Made by a program: the position numbers and the translations under genes
The notes under the pieces: generated by a model
Told to the model about the DNA's origin: nothing
The model's database searches: none
Seen by the model: the letters and a program-made list of their open reading frames with translations, nothing else
Shown here: positions 21,915-34,729 of the stretch, in pieces
Layout of the letters: each line of letters begins with the position of its first letter
Position numbering within the stretch: position 1 is the stretch's first letter
NCBI GenBank assembly: GCA_965200965.1
Contig: OZ241744.1
Span: forward strand, 1,472,001-1,536,000
Direction: 5' to 3'
DNA: 64,000 nucleotides
Source of the DNA: an uncultured Candidatus Binatia bacterium
Lineage (GTDB): Bacteria > Desulfobacterota > Binatia > Bin18

Positions 21915-23834
21915 CTATCCGCCGCTGCCCCCGCTCACACTCGACGCCTGGCCGCTCGCCACGTTGTTCTGGCCCCCGCTCACACTGGCGGAAATGCCGC
22001 TGGCCTCATTACTCTGGCCCCCGCTCACACTCGACGCCTGGCCGCTCGCCACATTGTTGTAGCCCCCGCTCACGCTGGCGGCAGGGGCTCGGGCTACGTT
22101 GTTCTGGCCCCCGCTCACGCTGGCGGAAGCGGATTGGGCCACGTTACGGTAGCCCCCGCTCACGCTGGCGGAAGCGGATTGGGCCACGTTACGGTAGCCC
22201 CCGCTCACGCTGGCGGCGGTACCGTGGACCCTGTTGGAGGTACCCCCGCTGATGCTGGCGGCAGTGCTGGTGGCCATATTGGACTGCCCCCCGCTCACGC
22301 TCGCATACGGGCCGCTGGCCACGTTCCCCACACCCCCGCTCACGCTCGACGCGTCGTCACTCGCCTCGTTGTTCTGGCCCCCGCTCACACTCCCATAGTC
22401 CCCGCTCGCCTCGTTGTCCCGGCCCCCACTCACGCTCGCGTACGCCCCGCTGATGATGTTCCCGACCCCCACCACCAAGCCACTATGACTCGAATACTCG
22501 TGCTCAGGGCCAATCACCACATTGTGCGAACCGCTGCGATCATTGCGGCCCGCAGTCCGCGGGGATCTGACCCCGACGGTGTTGAGATCTTCGTTGTAGC
22601 CCACGATCAGGTTGCCTAACCCGTTGGTCGTATTGGTGCTGCTAGCCCCGTTGCGGAAGTGGACATTGCAGCCCTCGAAGACTACATCAGCCTTCGTCTG
22701 GCCCCGGACGGCTTCGGTGGTGAGACAGGCAGGCAGACGGTTGCTGAAATCGTTGGCCGCTGCCACGGTCACGCCGCTGCCGCCGCCGATGGTGGAGAAG
22801 TTGCCCGTGGCCTGGTTGTTGGAACCCCCGCTCACACTCGCCGCACTGCTGGTCGCCGTGTTGCCGGAACCCCCGCTCACGCTGGTCGCCCAGCCGCCGG
22901 CCGTGTTGGCATGGCCCCCGCTCACACTGGAGTCATAATGCCGGGTCGTGTTGCTGTGGCCCCCGCTCACGCTGGAGTTCTCGCCGATGGCCGTGTTGCT
23001 CTGCCCCCCGCTCACGCTAGTGTGATAACCGATGGAGCGGTTGCGGTAGCCCCCGCTCACGCTCGCCGCAGGACCACTGGCTGTGTTCTGAGTACCCCCG
23101 CTCACGCTGGAGTCAAAGCTGCTGGCCGTGTTCTGATAGCCCCCGCTCACGCTGGAGTTCCCGCCGATGGCCCTGTTCTGATGACCCCCGCTCACGCTGG
23201 TGTGATAACCGATGGAGCGGTTGCGGTAGCCCCCGCTCACGCTCGCCGCAGGACCACTGGCCGTGTTGCCGGAACCCCCGCTCACGCTAGAGCTAGAGCT
23301 GCTGGCCGTGTTGTGGGAACCCCCGCTCACGCTCGCCGTCCAGCCGCGGGCTCGGTTGGACCAGCCCCCGCTCACACTCGCCGCATAGCCGGAGATAGCG
23401 TTATCATGCCCCGCCACCAGCCCGCCAGAACTGGGGTACTGATGCTGACTCCCAATCACCAGGTTGTGCGAGCCGCCCCGCTTGCTGCTATCTTCCTCGG
23501 GCCACGCCTCGTTGTAGCCGATAATCAGGTTGCCCAGCCCCAGGGGTTCGGAGACCCAGCCATCGTTCACGGTCCGTCCTTTATGGGTCACCCCCGACCC
23601 GCTGCGGATGTGGACATTGGCCCCGGTGAAGATTATGTGCGGACCGCTCAGGCCATGGTAGGTGCTGGTGGCCGCATCCTCAATCACCTGAATGTAGCGG
23701 GTCAGCTTGGCCACCGTGGTCTGTAAGGCCGACACTTGGGCCGCTAACTCCGCCAAGCTGGGCGCTTGGCCCCAACAGGGACTGGCTGCAAGCAGGACAC
23801 TACACACCGATGAGCACAGGAGGGAATAACGCAT
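21915..23834 (-). CDS. secreted SVSGG 15-residue repeat (beta-solenoid-like) protein, paralog 1 (N-module A, C-module alpha)
   Basis: Signal peptide MRYSLL...CWG, short coiled coil, two GLGNLI(I/V)GYNE...GSHN domains each followed by 45-bp SVSGGxxNxAxG repeats; RBS aaggag. Confidence 0.85.
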   Translation of the reverse strand: MRYSLLCSSVCSVLLAASPCWGQAPSLAELAAQVSALQTTVAKLTRYIQVIEDAATSTYHGLSGPHIIFTGANVHIRSGSGVTHKGRTVNDGWVSEPLGLGNLIIGYNEAWPEEDSSKRGGSHNLVIGSQHQYPSSGGLVAGHDNAISGYAASVSGGWSNRARGWTASVSGGSHNTASSSSSSVSGGSGNTASGPAASVSGGYRNRSIGYHTSVSGGHQNRAIGGNSSVSGGYQNTASSFDSSVSGGTQNTASGPAASVSGGYRNRSIGYHTSVSGGQSNTAIGENSSVSGGHSNTTRHYDSSVSGGHANTAGGWATSVSGGSGNTATSSAASVSGGSNNQATGNFSTIGGGSGVTVAAANDFSNRLPACLTTEAVRGQTKADVVFEGCNVHFRNGASSTNTTNGLGNLIVGYNEDLNTVGVRSPRTAGRNDRSGSHNVVIGPEHEYSSHSGLVVGVGNIISGAYASVSGGRDNEASGDYGSVSGGQNNEASDDASSVSGGVGNVASGPYASVSGGQSNMATSTAASISGGTSNRVHGTAASVSGGYRNVAQSASASVSGGYRNVAQSASASVSGGQNNVARAPAASVSGGYNNVASGQASSVSGGQSNEASGISASVSGGQNNVASGQASSVSGGSGG

Positions 23835-23882
23835 CACACGCTCCTTGCGGCCCCACAGGGGCGGAGAGAGAAGATGACACAC

Positions 23883-23912
23883 TCAATACCTGCCTTCCCG
23901 CTGAGCCGTCAA
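23883..23912 (-). promoter_or_regulatory. putative sigma70 promoter of A-type repeat genes (also copied upstream of 25950 and 28815)
   Basis: TTGACG-18nt-TATTGA; positionally conserved as TTGACC-18nt-TATGAA upstream of the diverged B-type genes. Confidence 0.45.
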
Positions 23913-23966
23913 GGCAGGGCCGCCGGACCTGCTGCGGAACAGAGCCGGCCCGCCGGCCGTGCAACG

Positions 23967-24115
23967 CCCCTGCCGCGTGCGCCCGGAGCGGGGGCATATA
24001 TGGGATGAAGTCCGTCACCGGTTGCTGCCCCTGCCGCGTGCGCCCGGAGCGGAGGGCTGGCCAGGAGACCTACCTCATCGGCCTCAAACCCCTGCCGCGT
24101 GCGCCCGGAGCGGGG
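23967..24115. CRISPR. orphan CRISPR-like mini-array 1 (3 repeats, 2 spacers)
   Basis: CCCCTGCCGCGTGCGCCCGGAGCGG(G/A)G starts at 23967, 24028 and 24089 (period 61), with unrelated spacers. Confidence 0.7.
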
Positions 24116-24201
24116 TAAACCCAGGGCACAGCCGGCTCGCCGCGCAGGGACTGACCGGCTCTGAACCGGTTGCCTGGGAGGACTCGCCGGGCAAGTCAGA
24201 A

Positions 24202-24222
24202 CGGGGGCGGGGCACGCCCCCG
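24202..24222 (-). terminator. GC hairpin just 3' of the paralog 2 stop (copy at 29061-29081)
   Basis: Minus strand CGGGGGCG-tgccc-CGCCCCCG followed by TTCT; weak U tract. Confidence 0.45.
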
Positions 24223-24237
24223 CAGCCCCCGGCAGGA

Positions 24238-25950
24238 CTAGAGGTCGGCGTTGACCGTCTGGTTCTTGCCCCCGCTGATGCTGCTCCGCCTTCCGCTCGC
24301 CCGGTTGTTCAACCCCCCGCTCACGCTCGCCGCTGCCCCGCTCGCCCGGTTCTGCACACTCACACTCGCCAGCGGATCAGGGCCAGCCGTGTTGCTCTGC
24401 CCCCCGAGCACGCTCGCATACGAGCCGCTGGCCACATTCGCCACGCCCCCGCTCACGCTCGACGCGTCGCCACTCGCCTCGTTGTTCTGGCCTCCGCTCA
24501 CACTCCCATAGTCCCCGCTCGCCTCGTTGTCCCGGCCCCCACTCACGCTCGCGTACTCCCCGCTGATGATGTTCCCGATGCCCACCACCAAGCCACTATG
24601 ACTCGAATACTCGTGCTCAGGGCCAATCACCACATTGTGCGAACCGCTGCGATCATTGCGGCCCAAGGTCCGCTGGGCAACGATCCCGGCGGTGGTGTCC
24701 ACATCTTCGTTGTAGCCCACGATCAGGTTGCCTAACCCGTTGGTCGTATTGGTGCTGCTAGCCCCGTTGTGGAGGTGGACATTGCAGCCCGTGAAGACTA
24801 CATCAGCCTTCGCCTGGCCGTCCACGTCTTTGGTGGTGAGACAGGCAGGCAGGCGGTTGCTGAAGTCGTTGGCCCCTATCACGGTCACGCTGCTGCCCCC
24901 GCCGACGGTGGAGAAGTTGCCCGTGGCCTGGTTGTTGGAACCCCCGCTCACGCTCGACGCAGTGCTCGTCGCCGTGTTGCTCTGCCCCCCGCTCACGCTC
25001 GCGTGCCGACCGCCGGCCGTGTTGTAGGCACCCCCGCTCACGCTCGCGTGCCGACCGCCGGCCGTGTTGTAGGAACCCCCGCTCACGCTCGTATGAGGAG
25101 CCGTGGCCTGGTTCCCATAGCCCCCGCTCACGCTCGCCGTCCACTCGCTGGCCCTGTTGCTGTGGCCCCCGCTCACACTGGAGGTCACGCCGCTGGCCCG
25201 GTTCCCATCGCCCCCACTCACACTGGAGTTCGGGCCGCTGGCCGTGTTGTACAAGCCCCCGCTCACGCTCGCCTGAGGGCCGATGGCCCTGTTGCTGTGG
25301 CCCCCGCTCACGCTGGTGTGATAACCGATGGAGCGGTTCCCATAGCCCCCGCTCACGCTCGCCGCAGGACCACTGGCCGTGTTGCCGGAACCCCCGCTCA
25401 CACTAGAGCTAGAACTGCTGGCCGTGTTACGGGAACCCCCGCTCACGCTCGCCGCCCAGCCGCGGGCTCGGTTGGACCAGCCCCCGCTCACACTCGCCGC
25501 ATGGGCGGAGATAGCGTTATCATGCCCCGCCACCAGCCCGCCAGAACTGGGGTACTGATGCTGACTCCCAATCACCAGGTTGTGCGAGCCGCCCCGCTTG
25601 CTGCTATCTTCCTCGGGCCACGCCTCGTTGTAGCCGATAATCAGGTTGCCCAGCCCCAGGGGTTCGGAGACCCAGCCATCGTTCACGGTCCGTCCTTTAT
25701 GGGTCACCCCCGACCCGCTGCGGATGTGGACATTGGCCCCGGTGAAGATTATGTGCGGACCGCTCAGGCCATGGTAGGTGCTGGTGGCCGCATCCTCAAT
25801 CACCTGAATGTAGCGGGTCAGCTTGGCCACCGTGGTCTGTAAGGCCGACACTTGGGCCGCTAACTCCGCCAAGCTGGGCGCTTGGCCCCAACAGGGACTG
25901 GCTGCAAGCAGGACACTACACACCGATGAGCACAGGAGGGAATAACGCAT
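24238..25950 (-). CDS. secreted SVSGG-repeat protein, paralog 2 (N-module A, C-module beta)
   Basis: N-terminus identical to paralog 1; second domain YNEDVDTTAGIVAQRTLG; ends KNQTVNADL. Confidence 0.85.
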   Translation of the reverse strand: MRYSLLCSSVCSVLLAASPCWGQAPSLAELAAQVSALQTTVAKLTRYIQVIEDAATSTYHGLSGPHIIFTGANVHIRSGSGVTHKGRTVNDGWVSEPLGLGNLIIGYNEAWPEEDSSKRGGSHNLVIGSQHQYPSSGGLVAGHDNAISAHAASVSGGWSNRARGWAASVSGGSRNTASSSSSSVSGGSGNTASGPAASVSGGYGNRSIGYHTSVSGGHSNRAIGPQASVSGGLYNTASGPNSSVSGGDGNRASGVTSSVSGGHSNRASEWTASVSGGYGNQATAPHTSVSGGSYNTAGGRHASVSGGAYNTAGGRHASVSGGQSNTATSTASSVSGGSNNQATGNFSTVGGGSSVTVIGANDFSNRLPACLTTKDVDGQAKADVVFTGCNVHLHNGASSTNTTNGLGNLIVGYNEDVDTTAGIVAQRTLGRNDRSGSHNVVIGPEHEYSSHSGLVVGIGNIISGEYASVSGGRDNEASGDYGSVSGGQNNEASGDASSVSGGVANVASGSYASVLGGQSNTAGPDPLASVSVQNRASGAAASVSGGLNNRASGRRSSISGGKNQTVNADL

Positions 25951-26082
25951 CACACGCTCCTTGCGGCCCCACAGGGGCGGAGAGAGAAGATGACACACTC
26001 AATACCTGCCTTCCCGCTGAGCCGTCAAGGCAGGGCCGCCGGACCTGCTGCGGAACAGAGCCGGCCCGCCGGCCGTGCAACG

Positions 26083-26291
26083 CCCCTGCCGCGTGCGCCC
26101 GGAGCGGGGGCATATATGGGATGAAGTCCGTCACCGGTTGCTGCCCCTGCCGCGTGCGCCCGGAGCGGGGGGGCTTTGAGGGAGATGTAAAATGCCAGCA
26201 GGACCCCTGCCGCGTGCGCCCGGAGCGGAGGGCTGGCCAGGAGACCTACCTCATCGGCCTCAAACCCCTGCCGCGTGCGCCCGGAGCGGGG
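26083..26291. CRISPR. orphan CRISPR-like mini-array 2 (4 repeats, 3 spacers)
   Basis: Same repeat at 26083, 26144, 26204 and 26265 (periods 61, 60, 61); spacers 1 and 3 are identical to those of array 1. Confidence 0.75.
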
Positions 26292-26420
26292 TAAACCCAG
26301 GGCACAGCCGGCTCGCCGCGCAGGGACTGACCGGCTCTGAACCGGTTGCCTGGGAGGGCTGCGCCGGGCAAGTCAGAACGGGGCGGGACACGCCCCCCAG
26401 CCCCCCAGCCCCCGGCAGGA

Positions 26421-27962
26421 CTAGAGGTCGGCGTTAGCCGTCTGGTTCTTGCCCCCGCTGATGCTGCTCCGCTTCCCGCTCGCCCAGTTGTGGTACCCCC
26501 CGCTCACGCTCGCCGCTTCCCCGGTCGCCCGGTTCAGCCGGCCCCCGCTCACACTCGACGCCGAGGCAGGGCCAGCCGTGTTGTTGTTCCCCCCGCTCAC
26601 GCTCGCATACGAGCCGCTGGCCACATTCGCCAAGCCCCCGCTCACGCTCGCCGCGTCGCCACTCGCCTCGTTGTTCTGGCCTCCGCTCACACTCCCATAG
26701 TCCCCGCTCGCCTCGTTGTCCCGGCCCCCACTCACGCTCGCGTACTCCCCGCTGATGATGTTCCCGATGCCCACCACCAAGCCACTATGACTCGAATACT
26801 CGTGCTCAGGGCCAATCACCACATTGTGCGAACCGCTGCGATCATTGCGGCCCGCAGTCCGCGGGGATCTGACCCCGACGGTGTTGAGATCTTCGTTGTA
26901 GCCCACGATCAGGTTGCCTAACCCGTTGGTCGTATTGGTGCTGCTAGCCCCGTTGCGGAAGTGGACATTGCAGCCCTCGAAGACTACATCAGCCTTCACC
27001 TGATTCCTCACGGCTGGCGGTTTGGTCCTCAGGCAGGCCGGCCAGAGGTAGCGGAAGTCGGCCACGCCGGTCGCGGTCAGGCCGTCGCCCCCGCTCACGC
27101 TGGAGAGCCGGCCGGAGGCCTGGTTGCGATGACCGCCGAGGACGCTGGCCCAATGCTCGCTCGCCGCGTTCGCCCGGCCCCCGCTCACGCTCGACACCCG
27201 CCCGCTGGCCATGTTCAGACGGCCCCCGCTCACGCTGGAGTAGTAACCAATGGCTCGGTTGTCCAAGCCCCCGCTCACGCTCGCATAATCGGCCGTGGCC
27301 CAGTTCCCATAGCCCCCGCTCACGCTCGCCGTATAGCCGCTGGCCGTGTTCTGATAGCCCCCGCTCACGCTCGACGCGCTGCTCGTCGCCGTGTTGCCCC
27401 GGCCCCCGCTCACGCTCGCATGAGCACCGCTGGCCGTGTTGTCGAGGCCCCCGCTCACGCTGGAGTCCTTACCCTGGGCCACGTTCCCACCACCGCCGCT
27501 CACGCTGGCCGCATAGCCGGAGATGACGTTGTTATGCCCCGCCACCAGCCCGCCGGAGTTGGGGTATTGATGATACCTCCCGATCACCAAGTTGTGCGAG
27601 CCGCCCCGCTGGGCCGTATCCGCAGTCGGCCAAGTGTTCGCCTCGTTGTAGCCGATAATCAGGTTGCCCAGCCCCAGGGGTTCGGAGACCCAGCCATCGT
27701 TCACGGTCCGCCCTTTGTGGGTCACCCCCGACCCGCTGCGGATGTGGACATTGGCCCCAGTGAAGATTATGTGCGGACCGCTCAGGCCATGGTAGGTGCT
27801 GGTGGCCGCATCCTCAATCACCTGAATGTAGCGGGTCAGCTTGGCCACAGTGGCCTCTAAGCTTTGGACCCGGCTCTCCAGGGTAGGCGCTGTCTGGCTC
27901 CAGCCCGGACTGGTGGTCAGCAGGATGGAGAACAGGGAAGAGAACAACACGAAACAACGCAT
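26421..27962 (-). CDS. secreted SVSGG-repeat protein, paralog 3 (N-module B, C-module alpha)
   Basis: Signal peptide MRCFVLFSS...PGWS; second domain YNEDLNTVGVRSPRTAG as in paralog 1. Confidence 0.85.
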   Translation of the reverse strand: MRCFVLFSSLFSILLTTSPGWSQTAPTLESRVQSLEATVAKLTRYIQVIEDAATSTYHGLSGPHIIFTGANVHIRSGSGVTHKGRTVNDGWVSEPLGLGNLIIGYNEANTWPTADTAQRGGSHNLVIGRYHQYPNSGGLVAGHNNVISGYAASVSGGGGNVAQGKDSSVSGGLDNTASGAHASVSGGRGNTATSSASSVSGGYQNTASGYTASVSGGYGNWATADYASVSGGLDNRAIGYYSSVSGGRLNMASGRVSSVSGGRANAASEHWASVLGGHRNQASGRLSSVSGGDGLTATGVADFRYLWPACLRTKPPAVRNQVKADVVFEGCNVHFRNGASSTNTTNGLGNLIVGYNEDLNTVGVRSPRTAGRNDRSGSHNVVIGPEHEYSSHSGLVVGIGNIISGEYASVSGGRDNEASGDYGSVSGGQNNEASGDAASVSGGLANVASGSYASVSGGNNNTAGPASASSVSGGRLNRATGEAASVSGGYHNWASGKRSSISGGKNQTANADL

Positions 27963-28014
27963 AAGGCGCTCCTTTCGGCCCTACAGGGGGCGGTCAGAGT
28001 TAAGATAGAGCGCA

Positions 28015-28044
28015 TTCATACGCTTCTTCCGCCCAAGCGGTCAA
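28015..28044 (-). promoter_or_regulatory. putative sigma70 promoter of B-type repeat genes (second copy near 30997-31026)
   Basis: TTGACC-18nt-TATGAA upstream of aaggag RBS. Confidence 0.45.
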
Positions 28045-28156
28045 GGCGGGGCCGGGGCCGGGCGTGCCTGCCACGGAAGAGAGCGGACCCGCCCGCCTTG
28101 CACCTCAGGTTTGCCCTCTGTATATGAGGACAGGCCAGCGTCGGGACTCCAGCACC

Positions 28157-28660
28157 ATGCAATCAACACCCACATCACGCTCAGCCTTCCGCTTCCTGGT
28201 CCTCCTGAGCGCCACGCTCGGGGTGTTGACCGCGGTGCAGACTCAGGACGGGCCAGGCGTGTAGAATGGAGGAAAGGCCGCCTGGTGGGATTTTTCCCTC
28301 CTTGATCTGGGGCTGATCGGCTGGGGCAACGCGCCCCAACAGCCGGTCGCTTTCAGCCACGCTCTGCACGCCGAGGCCGGCCTTGACTGCCTGTACTGCC
28401 ATAGCGCAGCCCGCCTCTCGCCCCAGGCCGGGATTCCGCCCCTCGCAACGTGTATCGGCTGCCACAGAAGAGCCACCGCCCAGCCCGAACTGCTCAAGGT
28501 GCAGGACTACTGGCAACGCCAGCAGCCCATCCCCTGGGTGCGGGTGCATAGGCTACCCCGCTTTACCCGCTTCAGCCACAAACGGCATATTCGGGCCGGC
28601 CTTGAGTGCTTGAGTTGTCACGGCCCAGTGGACCGGATGGAGCGGGTGGAGCAGGGCTCG
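28157..28660 (+). pseudogene. actA: duplicated, inactivated copy of actA
   Basis: Near-identical to 31145-31648, but TGG>TAG at 28262-28264 and truncated after RMERVEQ (last two heme motifs lost). Confidence 0.9.
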
Positions 28661-28815
28661 TCAATCACCTGAATGGAGCGGGTCAGGGTAGCGACTGTGG
28701 TCTGTAAGGCCGACACTTGGGCCGCTAACTCCGCCAAGCTGGGCGCTTGGCCCCAACAGGGACTGGCTGCAAGCAGGACACTACACACCGATGAGCACAG
28801 GAGGGAATAACGCAT
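28661..28815 (-). pseudogene. 5' stub of a fifth SVSGG-repeat gene (A-type)
   Basis: MRYSLL...ALQTTVATLTRSIQVI then abuts the actA pseudocopy. Confidence 0.85.
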
Positions 28816-28947
28816 CACACGCTCCTTGCGGCCCCACAGGGGCGGAGAGAGAAGATGACACACTCAATACCTGCCTTCCCGCTGAGCCGTCAAGGCAGGG
28901 CCGCCGGACCTGCTGCGGAACAGAGCCGGCCCGCCGGCCGTGCAACG

Positions 28948-28974
28948 CCCCTGCCGCGTGCGCCCGGAGCGGGG
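28948..28974. repeat. solo copy of the CRISPR-like repeat (no spacer) in the third copy of the intergenic module
   Basis: CCCCTGCCGCGTGCGCCCGGAGCGGGG with the same left and right flanks as arrays 1 and 2. Confidence 0.85.
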
Positions 28975-29096
28975 TGATCCCGGGGCACAGCCGGCTCGCC
29001 GCGCAGGGACTGACCGGCTCTGAACCGGTTGCCTGGGAGGACTCGCCGGGCAAGTCAGAACGGGGGCGGGGCACGCCCCCGCAGCCCCCGGCAGGA

Positions 29097-30944
29097 CTAG
29101 AGGTCGGCGTTGACCGTCTGGTTCTTGCCCCCGCTGATGCTGCTCCGCCTTCCGCTCGCCCGGTTGTTCAACCCCCCGCTCACGCTCGCCGCTGCCCCGC
29201 TCGCCCGGTTCTGCACACTCACACTCGCCAGCGGATCAGGGCCAGCCGTGTTGCTCTGCCCCCCGAGCACGCTCGCATACGAGCCGCTGGCCACATTCGC
29301 CACGCCCCCGCTCACGCTCGACGCGTCGCCACTCGCCTCGTTGTTCTGGCCTCCGCTCACACTCCCATAGTCCCCGCTCGCCTCGTTGTCCCGGCCCCCA
29401 CTCACGCTCGCGTACTCCCCGCTGATGATGTTCCCGACCCCCACCACCAAGCCACTATGACTCGAATACTCGTGCTCAGGGCCAATCACCACATTGTGCG
29501 AACCGCTGCGATCATTGCGGCCCAAGGTCCGCTGGGTAGCGATCCCGGCGGTGGTGTCCACATCTTCGTTGTAGCCCACGATCAGGTTGCCTAACCCGTT
29601 GGTCGTATTGGTGCTGCTAGCCCCGTTGTGGAGGTGGACATTGCAGCCCGTGAAGACTACATCAGCCTTCGCCTGGCCGTCCACGTCTTTGGTGGTGAGA
29701 CAGGCAGGCAGGCGGTTGCTGAAATCGTTGGCCGCTGCCACGGTCACGCCGCTGCCGCCGCCGATGGTGGAGAAGTTGCCCGTGACTCGGTTGTTGGAGC
29801 CCCCGCTCACGCTCGCCGCAGTGCTCGTCGCCGTGTTGCTCTGCCCCCCGCTCACGCTGGTCGCCCAGCCGCCGGCCGTGTTGGCATGGCCCCCGCTCAC
29901 GCTGGAGTCATAAGCCCGGGTCGTGTTGCCAGTGCCGCCGCTCACACTGGAGGTCCCGCCGATGGCCCTGTTCTGACTGCCCCCGCTCACGCTGGAGTTA
30001 ATGCCGATGGCCCTGTTCCTATAACCACCGCTCACGCTCGCCCCCAAGTCGCTGGCCCTGTTCTGACTGCCCCCGCTCACGCTCGCCACATAGCCGATGG
30101 CCCTGTTCCCCTGGCCCCCGCTCACGCTCGCCGCAGTGCCCGTCGCCGTGTTGCTCTGCCCCCCGCTCACGCTGGTCGCCCAGCCGCCGGCCGTGTTGGC
30201 ATGGCCCCCGCTCACGCTGGAGTCATAAGCCCGGGTCGTGTTGCCAGTGCCGCCGCTCACACTGGAGGTCCCGCCGATGGCCCTGTTCTGACTGCCCCCA
30301 CTCACGCTGGAGTTAATGCCGATGGCCCTGTTCCTATAACCCCCGCTCACGCTCGCCCCCAAGTCGCTGGCCCTGTTCTGACTGCCCCCGCTCACGCTCG
30401 CCGCAGTGCTCGTCGCCGTGTTGCTCTGCCCCCCGCTCACGCTGGTCGCCCAGCCGCCGGCCGTGTTGGCATGGCCCCCGCTCACGCTCGCCGAAACGCC
30501 GGAGATGACGTTATCCGCCCCCACCACCAGCCCGCCAGAACCGGGGTACTGATGCTGACTCCCAATCACCAGGTTGTGCGAGCCGCCCCGCTGGGCCGTA
30601 TCCGCAGTCGGCGAATCGTTCGCCTCGTTGTAGCCGATAATCAGGTTGCCCAGCCCCAGGGGTTCGGAGCCCCAGTTATCGTTCACGGTCCGCCCTCTAT
30701 GGGTCACCCCCGACCCGCTGCGGATGTGGACATTGGCCCCAGTGAAGATTATGTGCGGACCGCTCAGGCCATGGTAGGTGCTGGTGGCCGCATCCTCAAT
30801 CACCTGGATGTAGCGGGTCAGCTTGGCCACCGTGGCCTCTAGGCTTTGGACCCGGCTCTCCAGGGTAGGCGCTGTCTGGCTCCAGCCTGGGCTGGCGGTC
30901 AGCAGGATGGAGAACAGGGAAGAGAACAACACGAAACAACGCAT
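29097..30944 (-). CDS. secreted SVSGG-repeat protein, paralog 4 (N-module B, C-module beta)
   Basis: B-type signal peptide; C-terminal part nearly identical to paralog 2; internal block duplications at 270 and 315 bp offsets. Confidence 0.85.
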   Translation of the reverse strand: MRCFVLFSSLFSILLTASPGWSQTAPTLESRVQSLEATVAKLTRYIQVIEDAATSTYHGLSGPHIIFTGANVHIRSGSGVTHRGRTVNDNWGSEPLGLGNLIIGYNEANDSPTADTAQRGGSHNLVIGSQHQYPGSGGLVVGADNVISGVSASVSGGHANTAGGWATSVSGGQSNTATSTAASVSGGSQNRASDLGASVSGGYRNRAIGINSSVSGGSQNRAIGGTSSVSGGTGNTTRAYDSSVSGGHANTAGGWATSVSGGQSNTATGTAASVSGGQGNRAIGYVASVSGGSQNRASDLGASVSGGYRNRAIGINSSVSGGSQNRAIGGTSSVSGGTGNTTRAYDSSVSGGHANTAGGWATSVSGGQSNTATSTAASVSGGSNNRVTGNFSTIGGGSGVTVAAANDFSNRLPACLTTKDVDGQAKADVVFTGCNVHLHNGASSTNTTNGLGNLIVGYNEDVDTTAGIATQRTLGRNDRSGSHNVVIGPEHEYSSHSGLVVGVGNIISGEYASVSGGRDNEASGDYGSVSGGQNNEASGDASSVSGGVANVASGSYASVLGGQSNTAGPDPLASVSVQNRASGAAASVSGGLNNRASGRRSSISGGKNQTVNADL

Positions 30945-31144
30945 AAAGCGCTCCTTTCGGCCCTACAGGGGGCGGTTAGAGTTAAGATAGAGCGCATTCA
31001 TACGCTTCTTCCGCCCAAGCGGTCAAGGCGGGGCCGGGGCCGGCGTACCTGCCACGGAAGACGGAAGAGAGCAGGTACGCCCGCCTTGCGCCTCAGGGTT
31101 GCCCTCTGTATATGAGGACAGGCCAGCGTCGGGACTCCAGCACC

Positions 31145-31726
31145 ATGCAGTCAACACCCACATCACGCTCAGCCTTCCGCTTCCTGGTCCTCCTCAGCGC
31201 TACGCTCGGGGTGTTGACCGTGGTGCAGACTCAGGACGGGCCAGGCGTGTGGAATGGGGGAAAGGCCGCCTGGTGGGATTTTTCCCTCCTTGATCTGGGG
31301 CTGACCGGCTGGGGCAACGCGCCCCAACAGCCGGTCGCTTTCAGCCATGCCTTGCACGCCGAGGCTGGCCTTGACTGCCTGTACTGCCATAGCGCAGCCC
31401 GCCTCTCGCCCCAGGCCGGGATTCCGCCCCTCGCAACGTGTATCGGCTGCCACAGAAGAGCCACCGCCCAGCCCGAGTTGCTCAAGGTGCAGGACTACTG
31501 GCAACGCCAGCAGCCCATCCCCTGGGTGCGGGTGCATAGGCTGCCCCGCTTTACCCGCTTCAGCCACAAACGGCATATTCGGGCCGGCCTTGAGTGCTTG
31601 AGTTGTCACGGCCCAGTGGACCGGATGGAGCGGGTGGAGCAGGTCTCGTCGCTGAAAATGGGCTGGTGTGTGAGCTGCCACGAGGCCCAGCGGGCGGACA
31701 AAGACTGTCTGGTATGCCATTATTGA
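31145..31726 (+). CDS. actA: alternative complex III pentaheme cytochrome c
   Basis: PQQPVAFSHALH; CLYCH, CIGCH, CLSCH, MGWCVSCH, CLVCH. Confidence 0.9.
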   Translation: MQSTPTSRSAFRFLVLLSATLGVLTVVQTQDGPGVWNGGKAAWWDFSLLDLGLTGWGNAPQQPVAFSHALHAEAGLDCLYCHSAARLSPQAGIPPLATCIGCHRRATAQPELLKVQDYWQRQQPIPWVRVHRLPRFTRFSHKRHIRAGLECLSCHGPVDRMERVEQVSSLKMGWCVSCHEAQRADKDCLVCHY

Positions 31727-31747: not shown

Positions 31748-34729
31748 ATGGGAATTGATCGCCGAAATTTTCTCAAACTGCTTGGCCTCGGCTCAACCGC
31801 GCCACTGGTCGGCTGTGCCGCGGAGCCGGTCGAGAAAATCATTCCCTATGTGATTCAGCCCGAGAACATCGTGCCCGGCATTGCCAACTCCTACGCGACC
31901 ACCTGCCGGGAATGTCCGGCCGGCTGCGGCATGGTGGTCCGCACCCGTGAGGGCCGGGCGGTCAAAGCCGAGGGCAACCCATCCCACCCGATCAACGCCG
32001 GTACCCTGTGCGCCCGGGGCCAGGCGGCACTGCAAGGACTGTATAATCCAGACCGGATTCGCCAACCGCTGGCCCGGGACGCGACCGGGACCCTGCAGGC
32101 GGTCGCGTGGCAAGACGCCCAGCAGACCCTCGTGGACAAGCTCCGGGCCCTGCGGACAGAAGACCGGCTGGCGCAGACGGCGTTTCTGACCGGCCCGCTC
32201 GGCGACAGTCTGCACGGCCTGGTAAGCCAGTGGCTGGGCCGGCTCGGCTCGCAGCGGCTGACCGTCTATGAACCGTTTGCCTATGAGGCGCTGCGCCGGG
32301 CGAGTGAACTCTGTTTCAGTCGACTCACCCCCAGCTATGCGATAGACAAGGCCCGATTTCTGGTCAGCTTTGGCGCGGACTTTCTGGAGACATGGCGCTC
32401 CCCGGTCGAGTACGCCAGGGCGTTTGGCACAATGCGCAGCAAGCGCGGCAGCTTTGTGCAGGTTGAGCCGCGCTTGTCGCAAACCGGCGCAAACGCCGAT
32501 ACCTGGGTCAGTATTCAGCCCGGCAGGGAGGCGTTTCTGGCCCTTGGCATGGCCCGGAGCATTGTTGACGAACAGCTCACCAACGGCGTGTCAGCCGCGG
32601 AAGGGCAAAAACTCAGCGCCCTGCTGGCCCCCTATTCGCCGCGGCGCGTTGCCGCACTGAGCGGCGTACCGGCTTGGCGGATTCAACGCCTGGCCCGCGA
32701 CTTTGCGGCTCAGCGGCCGAGCCTGGCACTTGGGGCCGGGGTGGCGACAAGCTCACGACAGGCGACGGCCAGTCAGGTGGCCGTCCTGGTGCTGAACTAT
32801 GTGGCCGGCAATATCGGTCAGACCGTCCTGTTTGAAGCCGATGACGGCCTGAGTCGGGCGCATCCCTATACCTCGCTCCAGGCGCTCATCAGCGCGATGG
32901 AGGACGGGCAGGTCCCGCTCCTGCTGCTGGCCCACACCAACCCGGTCTTCAGCGCGCCCGAGGCCAGCGGATTTGCCAAAGCCCTTGAGCAGGTCCCGTT
33001 TGTCGTCAGCTTCTCGTCTTTTCCTGATGAGACGACCGAGCGGGCCGACCTTGTGCTGCCCGACCACAGCCCGCTGGAGAGCTGGGGTGATAGCAGCCCG
33101 CGGACCGGCGTCCACGCCCTGATGCAGCCGGTCATGGCCCCGGTGTTTGACACCCGGCCGATGGGCGATGTCCTGCTCTCAGTGGCCGCCCAACTTGAGG
33201 CGGCCCCGGAACCCAGCGGGAAGGCCGCGGCTTCCCAGCCGTGGAACAGCTTCTATGCGTGTCTCCGGGACTCGTGGAGAACGATCCACCAGCGGGCCGT
33301 ACAGGGAGCAGAAACCGATTTTGACACCTTCTGGCGCGAGGCCGTGCAGCGCGGGGGCTACTGGGAAGCGGCCCAGCCGCTAGCGGTTGAGCTGTCGCCG
33401 GCCGTCTATGCCCAGACATTTGATGTGCCGGAACTGTCCGGTCCGCCAGGCTCCTCCCTGCCCCTCATGCTGTATCCGTCCTCACGCTATTTTGACGGAC
33501 GGGGGGCCAACAAGCCCTGGCTGCAAGAACTGCCCGACCCCATGACCAAGGCGGTGTGGGACTCCTGGATCGATATCCACCCCCAGACCGCGGCCCGGCT
33601 CGGCATTGAGGACGGCGAGGTGCTGACCCTGCACTCGCCCCACGGCCGGCTTGAAGCCCCGGCCTGCCTGTACCCCCACATGCAGCCGGAACTGCTGGCC
33701 ATGCCGATCGGGCAGGGCCACACCGGCTACGGTCGCTACGCGGCCGGCCGCGGGGCCAACCCGATTCACCTGTTGCCGGCCGACGCTGAGACCGCGGCCG
33801 GGGGCCTGGCCTGGTTCTCGACGCGGGTGCAAATCGCGCCGGCCGGACGCCGCCAGCCCCTCGTCACCACGGCCGGCAGCAACACCCAACTCGGCCGCGG
33901 CATCGCCCAATCAGTCACGGCCGCGGCCCTGGCCGAGCAGTCCGCGGCCGACCCTGGTACGCCGTCCGGCAAGGGGCATGCGCACGACATGTACCCCGAA
34001 CTGGAATACGAACACTACCGCTGGGGCATGACGGTTGACCTGTCGGCCTGCACCGGGTGCGGGGCGTGTGTGACGGCCTGCTACGCCGAGAACAATATCC
34101 CGACGGTCGGCAAGGAAGCAGTAGCCGAGGGGCGGGAGATGGCCTGGCTGCGGATTGAACGCTATTTTGCCGATAGCTCGCCCCGGCACTGGGACCCCGC
34201 CGCCCCGCCGGTGTCCTTTGCGCCCATGCTGTGTCAACAGTGCGGCAACGCCCCGTGCGAGCCGGTGTGCCCGGTGTACGCCACCTATCATAACCCAGAG
34301 GGCCTCAACGCCCAGGTCTACAACCGGTGTGTCGGCACCCGCTATTGCTCAAACAACTGCCCCTACAAGGTGCGCCGCTTCAACTGGTCGCCGGCCGAGT
34401 GGCCCGAACCGCTCCACCTCCAACTCAACCCCGATGTGACCGTGCGAGAAGCCGGGGTGATGGAGAAGTGTACCTTCTGCGTCCAGCGGATTCAGGCGGG
34501 CAAAGATCGGGCCAAAGACGAAAACCGCCCGGTCCGGGACGGCGAGATCACACCGGCCTGCGCCCAGACCTGTCCAACCCGGGCGATTCATTTTGGCAAC
34601 CTGGAAGACCCCCAGAGCGCCGTCTCACAGCACCGCCAGGACCCGCGCGCCTACACCGTCCTGGACCACCTCAACACCAAGCCGGCGGTGACCTACCTCA
34701 AAAGAGTCGTCAGGCACCGAGACGGCTGA
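31748..34729 (+). CDS. actB: alternative complex III ActB (Tat-exported molybdopterin-oxidoreductase-like plus 4Fe-4S domains)
   Basis: RRNFLK Tat motif, DGRGANKPWLQELPDP, CTGCGACVTAC, YNRCVGTRYCSNNCPYKVRRFN, GVMEKCTFCVQRI. Confidence 0.92.
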   Translation: MGIDRRNFLKLLGLGSTAPLVGCAAEPVEKIIPYVIQPENIVPGIANSYATTCRECPAGCGMVVRTREGRAVKAEGNPSHPINAGTLCARGQAALQGLYNPDRIRQPLARDATGTLQAVAWQDAQQTLVDKLRALRTEDRLAQTAFLTGPLGDSLHGLVSQWLGRLGSQRLTVYEPFAYEALRRASELCFSRLTPSYAIDKARFLVSFGADFLETWRSPVEYARAFGTMRSKRGSFVQVEPRLSQTGANADTWVSIQPGREAFLALGMARSIVDEQLTNGVSAAEGQKLSALLAPYSPRRVAALSGVPAWRIQRLARDFAAQRPSLALGAGVATSSRQATASQVAVLVLNYVAGNIGQTVLFEADDGLSRAHPYTSLQALISAMEDGQVPLLLLAHTNPVFSAPEASGFAKALEQVPFVVSFSSFPDETTERADLVLPDHSPLESWGDSSPRTGVHALMQPVMAPVFDTRPMGDVLLSVAAQLEAAPEPSGKAAASQPWNSFYACLRDSWRTIHQRAVQGAETDFDTFWREAVQRGGYWEAAQPLAVELSPAVYAQTFDVPELSGPPGSSLPLMLYPSSRYFDGRGANKPWLQELPDPMTKAVWDSWIDIHPQTAARLGIEDGEVLTLHSPHGRLEAPACLYPHMQPELLAMPIGQGHTGYGRYAAGRGANPIHLLPADAETAAGGLAWFSTRVQIAPAGRRQPLVTTAGSNTQLGRGIAQSVTAAALAEQSAADPGTPSGKGHAHDMYPELEYEHYRWGMTVDLSACTGCGACVTACYAENNIPTVGKEAVAEGREMAWLRIERYFADSSPRHWDPAAPPVSFAPMLCQQCGNAPCEPVCPVYATYHNPEGLNAQVYNRCVGTRYCSNNCPYKVRRFNWSPAEWPEPLHLQLNPDVTVREAGVMEKCTFCVQRIQAGKDRAKDENRPVRDGEITPACAQTCPTRAIHFGNLEDPQSAVSQHRQDPRAYTVLDHLNTKPAVTYLKRVVRHRDG

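Follow-up and report, generated by a model that had tools for sequence, protein, structure and literature searches.

The intergenic modules considered here lie between positions 23,967 and 28,974 of a 64,000-nt stretch of the genome of an uncultured Candidatus Binatia bacterium (the window), and carry a 28-nt repeat which, in two of the three module copies, alternates with 32- and 33-nt spacers to form miniature arrays of the CRISPR kind. These mini-arrays very probably arose as a neo-CRISPR array, i.e. by off-target spacer integration by type I-E Cas1-Cas2, which would have struck the same site three times before the product was duplicated together with the neighbouring β-helix genes, and they are probably silent. 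The observations that carry this reading are the origin of the repeat, the geometry of the arrays, the matches of spacers to the host's own chromosome along with their flanks, the sister scars that share an anchor motif with the focal site and the empty orthologues of these scars in related genomes.

How new arrays and repeats originate, and how often Cas1-Cas2 damages its own genome, are open questions for which the evidence comes mainly from the laboratory. In the window the whole trail is found in one place: the ancestral gene is still intact, one copy of the site has no spacer, and stages with two and with three spacers are present. Elsewhere the genome has approximately 14 single scars whose dimensions suit different CRISPR systems, and one site was struck independently in two species. 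The outcome is a set of named substrates and a two-base anchor rule, and the locus would illustrate, in nature, the birth of a new and probably silent array.

The mini-arrays and their repeat

The core of the repeat starts at 23967, 24028, 24089, 26083, 26144, 26204, 26265 and 28948 of the window, and a search of the whole genome (3.62 Mb) with the 26-nt core, allowing up to 4 mismatches, returned only these eight copies, bearing out the layouts given in the initial annotation (R-S1-R-S3-R, R-S1-R-S2-R-S3-R and a solo R, where R is the repeat and S1 to S3 are the spacers). The 28-nt register adopted here begins one base to the left of the repeat start of that annotation. The spacers measure 33 (S1), 32 (S2) and 33 nt (S3), and the periods, of 61/61 in array 1 and 61/60/61 in array 2, agree with the 60-61 nt first noted.

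23966..24115 (+), mini-array 1: R 23966-23993, S1 23994-24026, R 24027-24054, S3 24055-24087, R 24088-24115
26082..26291 (+) overall, mini-array 2, first half: R 26082-26109, S1 26110-26142, R 26143-26170, S2 26171-26202
Mini-array 2, second half: R 26203-26230, S3 26231-26263, R 26264-26291
28947..28974 (+), solo 28-nt site with no spacer: pre-integration copy or collapsed array

With respect to the last alternative, the solo copy is not a simple recent collapse of an array, because three clustered bases in its right flank are substituted with respect to array 1. Array 1 itself is likely to be array 2 minus one repeat-S2 unit, in an order of events that we infer. The repeats of array 2 begin with G on the left (two copies) and with A on the right (two copies), a split that fits growth at the left end, other registers being possible.

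The repeat had been described as able to fold, but it does so no better than shuffled sequences (z 0.23, versus -3.47 for the host I-E repeat), and the central 6-bp stem that the host repeat has for Cas6e is absent from it. The modules had also been placed between a terminator-like hairpin and a promoter; consensus scans detected neither type of site in them. A search of Rfam with E up to 5 gave 4 weak matches in total, none of which falls on the arrays. The exact 24-nt core of the repeat has no match in genome and metagenome contig collections, which may omit this genome or its near kin, and no array-like match to the repeat is found among 60 relatives.

Origin of the repeat from the actB-like gene

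Alignment shows that the repeat is a decayed piece, 28 nt long, of the actB-like gene nearby, collinear with it together with both flanks. Keeping order and strand, the module around the solo repeat matches 31008-31088, 31993-32017 (20/25) and 32216-32305 (53/72, 12/16). Over a 33-nt stretch that covers most of the repeat, 25/33 positions are identical to actB, a score reached at only 2 positions genome-wide and whose chance expectation within 1,140 collinear positions is about 0.0003; the actB gene of a relative, G007, scores the same (25/33). The left flank, compared with two B-type copies, stands at z 8.2 and 3.6 against shuffles. Because the flanks and the repeat align collinearly to the act-like operon, the A-type intergenic module is an eroded duplicate of the start of that operon, the coding sequence of which is still recognisable 3 kb from the solo site.

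28875..28942 (+), module, left flank: homologue of the intergenic stretch found upstream of the actA-like gene (31008-31088)
28968..29055 (+), module, right flank: decayed remnant of actB-like coding sequence (32216-32305; z 10-14; 53/72, 12/16)
31997..32024 (+), intact homologue of the repeat in actB-like codons 84-93, single copy (20/28, with flank 25/33)
31112..31726 (+), multiheme cytochrome c gene (ActA/QrcA-like), below NCBIfam cut-off
31748..34729 (+), molybdopterin-oxidoreductase-like / 4Fe-4S gene (ActB or QrcB+C-like), source of the repeat, below NCBIfam cut-offs
28124..28660 (+), cytochrome c gene, recent duplicate, truncated (95% over 300 nt; right end placed by eye)

The names actA and actB are based on gene order and Pfam, the NCBIfam Qrc matches being below cut-off. 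The duplicate at 28124-28660 shows that duplications of the SVSGG-gene unit carry the start of the act-like operon along. At 28124-28863 this truncated cytochrome c duplicate is fused head-on to a truncated A-type SVSGG gene start, forming a recent duplication junction. The earlier proposal of an orphan CRISPR co-amplified with the genes stands as far as co-amplification is concerned, but not as an orphan array, the repeat being local actB-like sequence. Modules of G007 were considered as empty orthologues of the focal site; their alignment is weak (z 0.8-1.9 in 4/4 tested) and they were not counted.

The CRISPR systems of the host

The initial annotation had noted no cas gene in the window, and no match to cas1, RAMP or cas6e lies there; six cas1 loci and as many arrays occur elsewhere in the genome. 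Typing of cas1 gave I-C, I-MYXAN, II and I-E, while a fifth cas1 adjoins RAMP genes and is read as type III, and the sixth is stop-interrupted beside a split Cas12c. Five of the arrays have repeat/spacer sizes of 37/34-38, 36/34-38, 37/30-31, 28/33 and 37/36-46, and the sixth, read by eye, of about 26/17-19. Among these six systems the 28+33 geometry fits I-E alone, so that the likeness to type I-E first seen in the 28+32/33 dimensions holds against the host's own array. The latter (G000:C1:2819952-2833585, on the single contig of the host genome) consists of 224 identical 28-nt repeats, with 223 spacers of 33 nt in 220 cases, 32 nt in 2 and 34 nt in 1. The I-E operon, located 1.3 Mb from the focal arrays, has open frames for all eight genes, with intact cas1e and cas2e, and with cas8e and a full-length cas3 that score below whole-protein cut-offs.

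At the type V-C locus (G000:C1 ~678560-683975) a short-spacer array accompanies a cas1 with an internal TAG and a Cas12c in two overlapping frames (817 + 469 aa); the locus is broken or mis-assembled.

Sources of the spacers

Two of the three spacers match the host chromosome over 33/33 positions, one of them after a shift of one base.

26110..26142 (+), S1: one base to the right, 33/33 to G000:C1:2273757-2273789 (-), AAT directly 5'
26171..26202 (+), S2: 32 nt, source not found
26231..26263 (+), S3: 33/33 to G000:C1:2818268-2818300 (+), AA directly 5', the spacer beginning with the G of AAG

The S3 protospacer belongs to a gene with a vWA domain, at a distance of 1.7 kb from the I-E array of the host, and that of S1 to an unnamed gene in a DNA-methylase island. 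In E. coli, I-E protospacers are 33 bp long and begin with the G of AAG, and a self-acquisition hotspot is described beside the array (PMC10011333); the start of S3 follows this E. coli pattern. An AA adjoins all three I-E-size spacers that could be traced, in register for S3, with a mismatch or slip for S1, and at the insert of the scar at 1833927 described below. By comparison with the true I-E array, self spacers are over-represented (2/3 versus 4/221 unique spacers; Fisher p 0.0018), only 6/220 of its 33-nt spacers begin with A, and none of its four self spacers has AA directly 5' in register, as S3 does. The protospacer-adjacent motif (PAM) of the host is an indirect reading, from these four mis-registered self spacers and a few spacer overlaps.

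Across the canonical arrays, seven spacers match the chromosome over their full length (G000:C1 2820714, 2822543, 2823459, 2825410; 2072357; 3367052; 3371339). The first four, which are the I-E ones, look slipped or flipped relative to the AA motif, one having AA at its opposite end, as a flipped spacer would, and the remaining three starting within an AA. As a raw count, 3/14 self-protospacers lie within 25 kb of an array. An escape mutation of the PAM at S1 was also considered and set aside, as G007 shares the same flank and the T is therefore not a recent escape.

For S2, no match beyond 14 nt occurs in the host's own genome, none at up to 3 mismatches in 54 family genomes, and none in viral contigs (25 nt used) or genome contigs (21 nt used). 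Two candidates, one metagenomic and one viral, were rejected, being partial (21-22 nt) with diverging flanks.

Sister scars elsewhere in the genome

Scanning the whole genome for repeat-insert-repeat units with two repeat copies yielded 138 candidates, 20 of which passed the filters; six of the latter, with periods of 75, 87 (three times), 90 and 96, were set aside as likely coding repeats, and the 14 scars that were kept have CRISPR sizes.

G000:C1 1247292, 1469848, 1833927, 2790044: I-E-size single-spacer scars (n=4), period 60-61
G000:C1 244733, 445086, 589271, 1118450, 1842262: longer scars (n=10, period 68-78), first five
G000:C1 2173980, 2360022, 2540592, 3359968, 3494940: longer scars, last five

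At the five I-E-size sites, the focal one included, duplications and inserts measure 27-30 + 31-33 nt, and the ten longer scars combine 37-40-nt duplications with 28-41-nt inserts, dimensions that resemble those of the host's I-C/I-MYXAN, type II and type III arrays. The inserts of 5/14 scars match elsewhere in the chromosome, four exactly over 31-37 nt and one at 34/36; one of the five is I-E-size (1833927; 33/33, AAG, minus strand) and four are found among the longer scars. Silent ectopic arrays may record naive self-acquisition without purging, as is suggested by the proportion of self spacers, 3/7 among I-E-size ectopic spacers versus 4/221 in the true array. The scars also suggest that some of the 'orphan' mini-arrays in databases are integration scars.

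For eight of the 14 scars (four I-E-size and four longer) the orthologous loci were examined in other genomes of the genus. Exactly 60 nt are missing at site 1833927 in 5/5 relatives and at site 2790044 in 4/5; in gapped alignments, site 1469848 is 60-67 nt shorter in 4/5, with one unalignable, and site 1247292 is 49-67 nt shorter in 5/5. As for the longer ones, the dprA site 1842262 is exactly 72 nt shorter in 4/5 relatives, the remaining one not being alignable across it, site 445086 is exactly 78 nt shorter in 5/6 loci, site 3494940 is about one period shorter in 5/5 (gapped alignments) and paralogues of site 1118450 hold single copies. The exception at 2790044 is G004, a relative with an I-E cas1, which carries its own 27-nt duplication around a different 33-nt insert (27+33+27), this insert having no match elsewhere in G004. 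An I-E cas1 is present in G006 as well, and in G007, G002 and G005 none scores over the cut-off.

G004:C1 about 2692054-2692140: independent insertion at the start of a recX-like gene

The two cases support the view that the orthologous site is a recurrent hot site, apparently hit independently in two species.

The dprA scar is an in-frame addition of 72 nt, i.e. 24 residues within a conserved domain, and its insert copies G000:C1:1312088-1312123, with TTC at the 5' side. Another scar, at G000:C1:3359968-3360080, has a 37-nt duplication inside the RAMP (type III-like) cas operon, at a gene junction.

The anchor motif and the points that weigh against off-target integration

The host I-E repeat, the focal repeat and all four period-60/61 scars have CC at positions 8-9 from both ends (5/5 sites), as has the intact actB homologue of the repeat itself, and this anchor is found in 0/10 of the longer scars. 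Random windows, given the same register freedom, carry it at 0.8-4.6% per site, and a relaxed scan gave no additional period-60/61 scar bearing the CC motif. In E. coli, inverted-repeat anchors are reported to set repeat length (Goren 2016, PMC5039180), and the same source describes full inverted repeats as essential for efficient adaptation; the CC motif sits in or beside the positions of these ruler-anchor inverted repeats. Integration at repeat-like sequences outside arrays has been described in vitro (PMC8047081).

Several points weigh against the integration scenario. The CC rule was set post hoc, after inspection of the sites, and two degenerate period-60 pairs (24/27) are without the anchor. 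Of the inverted repeats, essential in E. coli, the focal site has only a part, with GCCCG where the host repeat has GCGGG, which fits rare integration events. Nor is the repeat an ordinary I-E one, its identity to the host I-E repeat being just 13/28, a value reached by 2.1% of genome positions, and the left flank, by eye, is rich in GC and does not resemble the host leader. No relative holds a clean empty orthologue of the focal site, for whose empty state the evidence comes from the solo copy and from actB. As to the spacers, the S1 match requires a one-base slip, or one mismatch in register, S2 is 32 nt long with no source, and the host PAM is only deduced, with GA and AG suggested besides AA by overlapping spacers.

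Proposed mechanism

Starting from a duplicated and then eroded copy of the act-like operon start, Cas1e-Cas2e would have integrated S3 first, S2 next and S1 last, always at the left end and with a duplication of the site at every insertion. The AA motifs point to the left end as the leader side, which would make S3 the oldest spacer and S1 the newest. The unit would then have been duplicated together with an SVSGG gene, and array 1 would have lost its repeat-S2 by recombination. The array is probably silent because it is without the I-E stem and handle and the genes flanking it run on the opposite strand, and also because S3 has an in-register AAG self target, which in the presence of intact Cascade-Cas3 should be lethal if guided.

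Alternative explanations

Function could be ascribed to the arrays in two related ways. A working new array, in which a leaderless site from dead coding DNA goes on acquiring spacers and is transcribed and loaded, its guides regulating host genes, seems unlikely with respect to transcription, processing and function. In this proposal the integrases of several CRISPR types in the genus would be recurrent, site-preferring insertional mutagens that seed arrays; the repeated acquisition and the recurrent hot site that it invokes are supported by the sequences. It is quite unlikely, too, that an array begun off target is now used, its guide-like RNAs regulating the vWA and methylase-island genes, or the array acting in cis on the SVSGG promoter. 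The site has indeed been used three times, S1 and S3 are identical in the two copies and still 33/33 to their targets, and an array lies just upstream of each A-type gene; however, the fold is no better than that of shuffles, the host stem is absent and no promoter-like site was found. Moreover, a perfect target match with AAG and an intact cas3 is expected to result in self-killing rather than regulation, the perfect identity is equally explained by recency, and 8/8 of the corresponding G007 regions are without an array.

That the array was acquired horizontally, as a diverged I-E or type IV-A orphan array that was inserted and then decayed, with the likeness to actB due to chance, is very unlikely. 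Such an origin would account for the 28+33 geometry and the partial, in-register likeness to the host I-E repeat (13/28), but it is largely refuted by the collinear homology of both flanks and repeat with local DNA, which leaves no room for an imported leader or trailer. Two of the spacers are self, the genome has no match to Csf2 (TIGR03115; other csf families were not searched), and the database and relative searches described above gave no source for the repeat. A likeness to type IV-A repeats was unconfirmed by the literature and was not used. It is highly improbable that the inserts were captured independently of Cas proteins, through templated break repair or an element of the repetitive extragenic palindromic (REP) or miniature inverted-repeat transposable element (MITE) kind, with target duplication. 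The region is prone to duplication, and short captured fragments can arise in break repair; yet the lengths of inserts and duplications track the host CRISPR systems at the five I-E-size and ten longer sites, AA flanks are present at 3/3 traced I-E-size spacers and the anchor motif is confined to the I-E-size class. The REP-like element envisaged in the initial annotation is further contradicted by the distribution of the repeat, which is no dispersed palindrome, with its 8 copies at one locus. Finally, mis-joining in a repeat-rich region, as the source of the copies or arrays, is scarcely credible. The cluster is highly repetitive and CheckM-type contamination amounts to 5.7%, but the assembly is one contig, the copies differ at diagnostic bases and mis-joining does not make 33-nt inserts with PAM-like flanks at motif sites; G004 shows an independent case, and at most the copy number could be wrong.

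Relation to known systems

Neo-CRISPR arrays were reportedly obtained by Nivala, Shipman and Church (2018, Nat Microbiol 3:310) in E. coli overexpressing Cas1-Cas2. Later sources cite Nivala 2018 for off-target spacer integration by the E. coli I-E Cas1-Cas2 (10.1101/148544, PMC11788318, PMC7054753, PMC11394691), and the first of these states that the commonness of such arrays is unclear and credits Nivala with circumstantial evidence from two further species. The mini-arrays share with them spacer-length inserts and repeat-length target duplications, of type I-E sizes, at non-array sites that partly resemble the repeat. Pre-existing non-CRISPR DNA (actB-like codons 84-93, the solo copy) is duplicated over a repeat length, the insert and duplication lengths (28 + 33/32/33) equal those of the resident I-E system, and the target has an internal anchor in common with the true repeat (CC, recognised post hoc, full inverted repeats being absent). 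Unlike the E. coli examples, they are natural and fixed, and appeared without Cas1-Cas2 overexpression; the focal site received three insertions before being duplicated, its ancestral coding sequence can still be recognised at a distance of 3 kb, scars with the dimensions of other CRISPR systems occur in the same genome, and a second species shows an independent hit at one of the sites. The open-access literature searched gave no account of a natural neo-array with several spacers. We regard the mini-arrays as a real natural case of a known kind, for which the evidence of origin is unusually complete.

A canonical I-E array resembles them in its 28-nt repeat, 33-nt spacers, AAG/AAT-type 5' flank and CC at 8-9 from both ends. 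It differs in that here the cas operon is 1.3 Mb away rather than adjacent, no leader-like sequence is seen (by eye), the leader position being taken by the homologue of the actA upstream region, identity to the repeat is 13/28 with no central 6-bp stem, the spacers are mostly self and the repeat derives from a protein-coding gene. Orphan or type IV-A arrays and regulatory mini-arrays (CreTA / CRISPR-like RNAs, homing arrays of CRISPR-associated transposons, CAST) are likewise short, located away from cas genes and endowed with spacers that match the chromosome. In these systems the repeats are related to a functional CRISPR repeat and the matches are usually partial, or directed to promoters or tRNA genes; the matches observed here are, instead, perfect and inside coding genes, and for type IV-A no Csf2 was found.

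The SVSGG-repeat genes around the arrays

The genes that flank the arrays run on the opposite strand to them.

21915..23882 (-), A-type SVSGG-repeat protein gene, 655 aa, with weak LbR_Ice_bind / UspA1_rep matches
24238..25998 (-), A-type SVSGG-repeat protein gene, 586 aa
26421..27962 (-), B-type SVSGG-repeat protein gene, 513 aa
28618..28863 (-), start of an A-type SVSGG gene, truncated (81 aa) and lying downstream of the solo site
29097..30944 (-), B-type SVSGG-repeat protein gene, 615 aa

The repeat module had been placed upstream of each A-type gene, which is correct for the two whole genes, the third copy preceding the truncated gene start. The SVSGG (β-helix) genes are passengers, because three other SVSGG loci of the same genome are without the repeat. 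The same gene cluster occurs in G007, where 0/8 SVSGG upstream regions have a repeat-spacer structure, and neither these homologues nor the three other loci show the same repeat with different spacers, as the initial annotation had contemplated. Its suggestion of an undescribed RNA system linked to these proteins finds no support, because of the 0/8 count in G007, the three bare loci and the presence of scars at unrelated genes.

The SVSGG proteins form a secreted-looking tandem family with 15-residue repeats (21915-30944 in the window and G007:C4 347000-361100) and weak matches to LbR_Ice_bind / UspA1_rep, and with the query used the family is found in 2/8 genomes of the genus.

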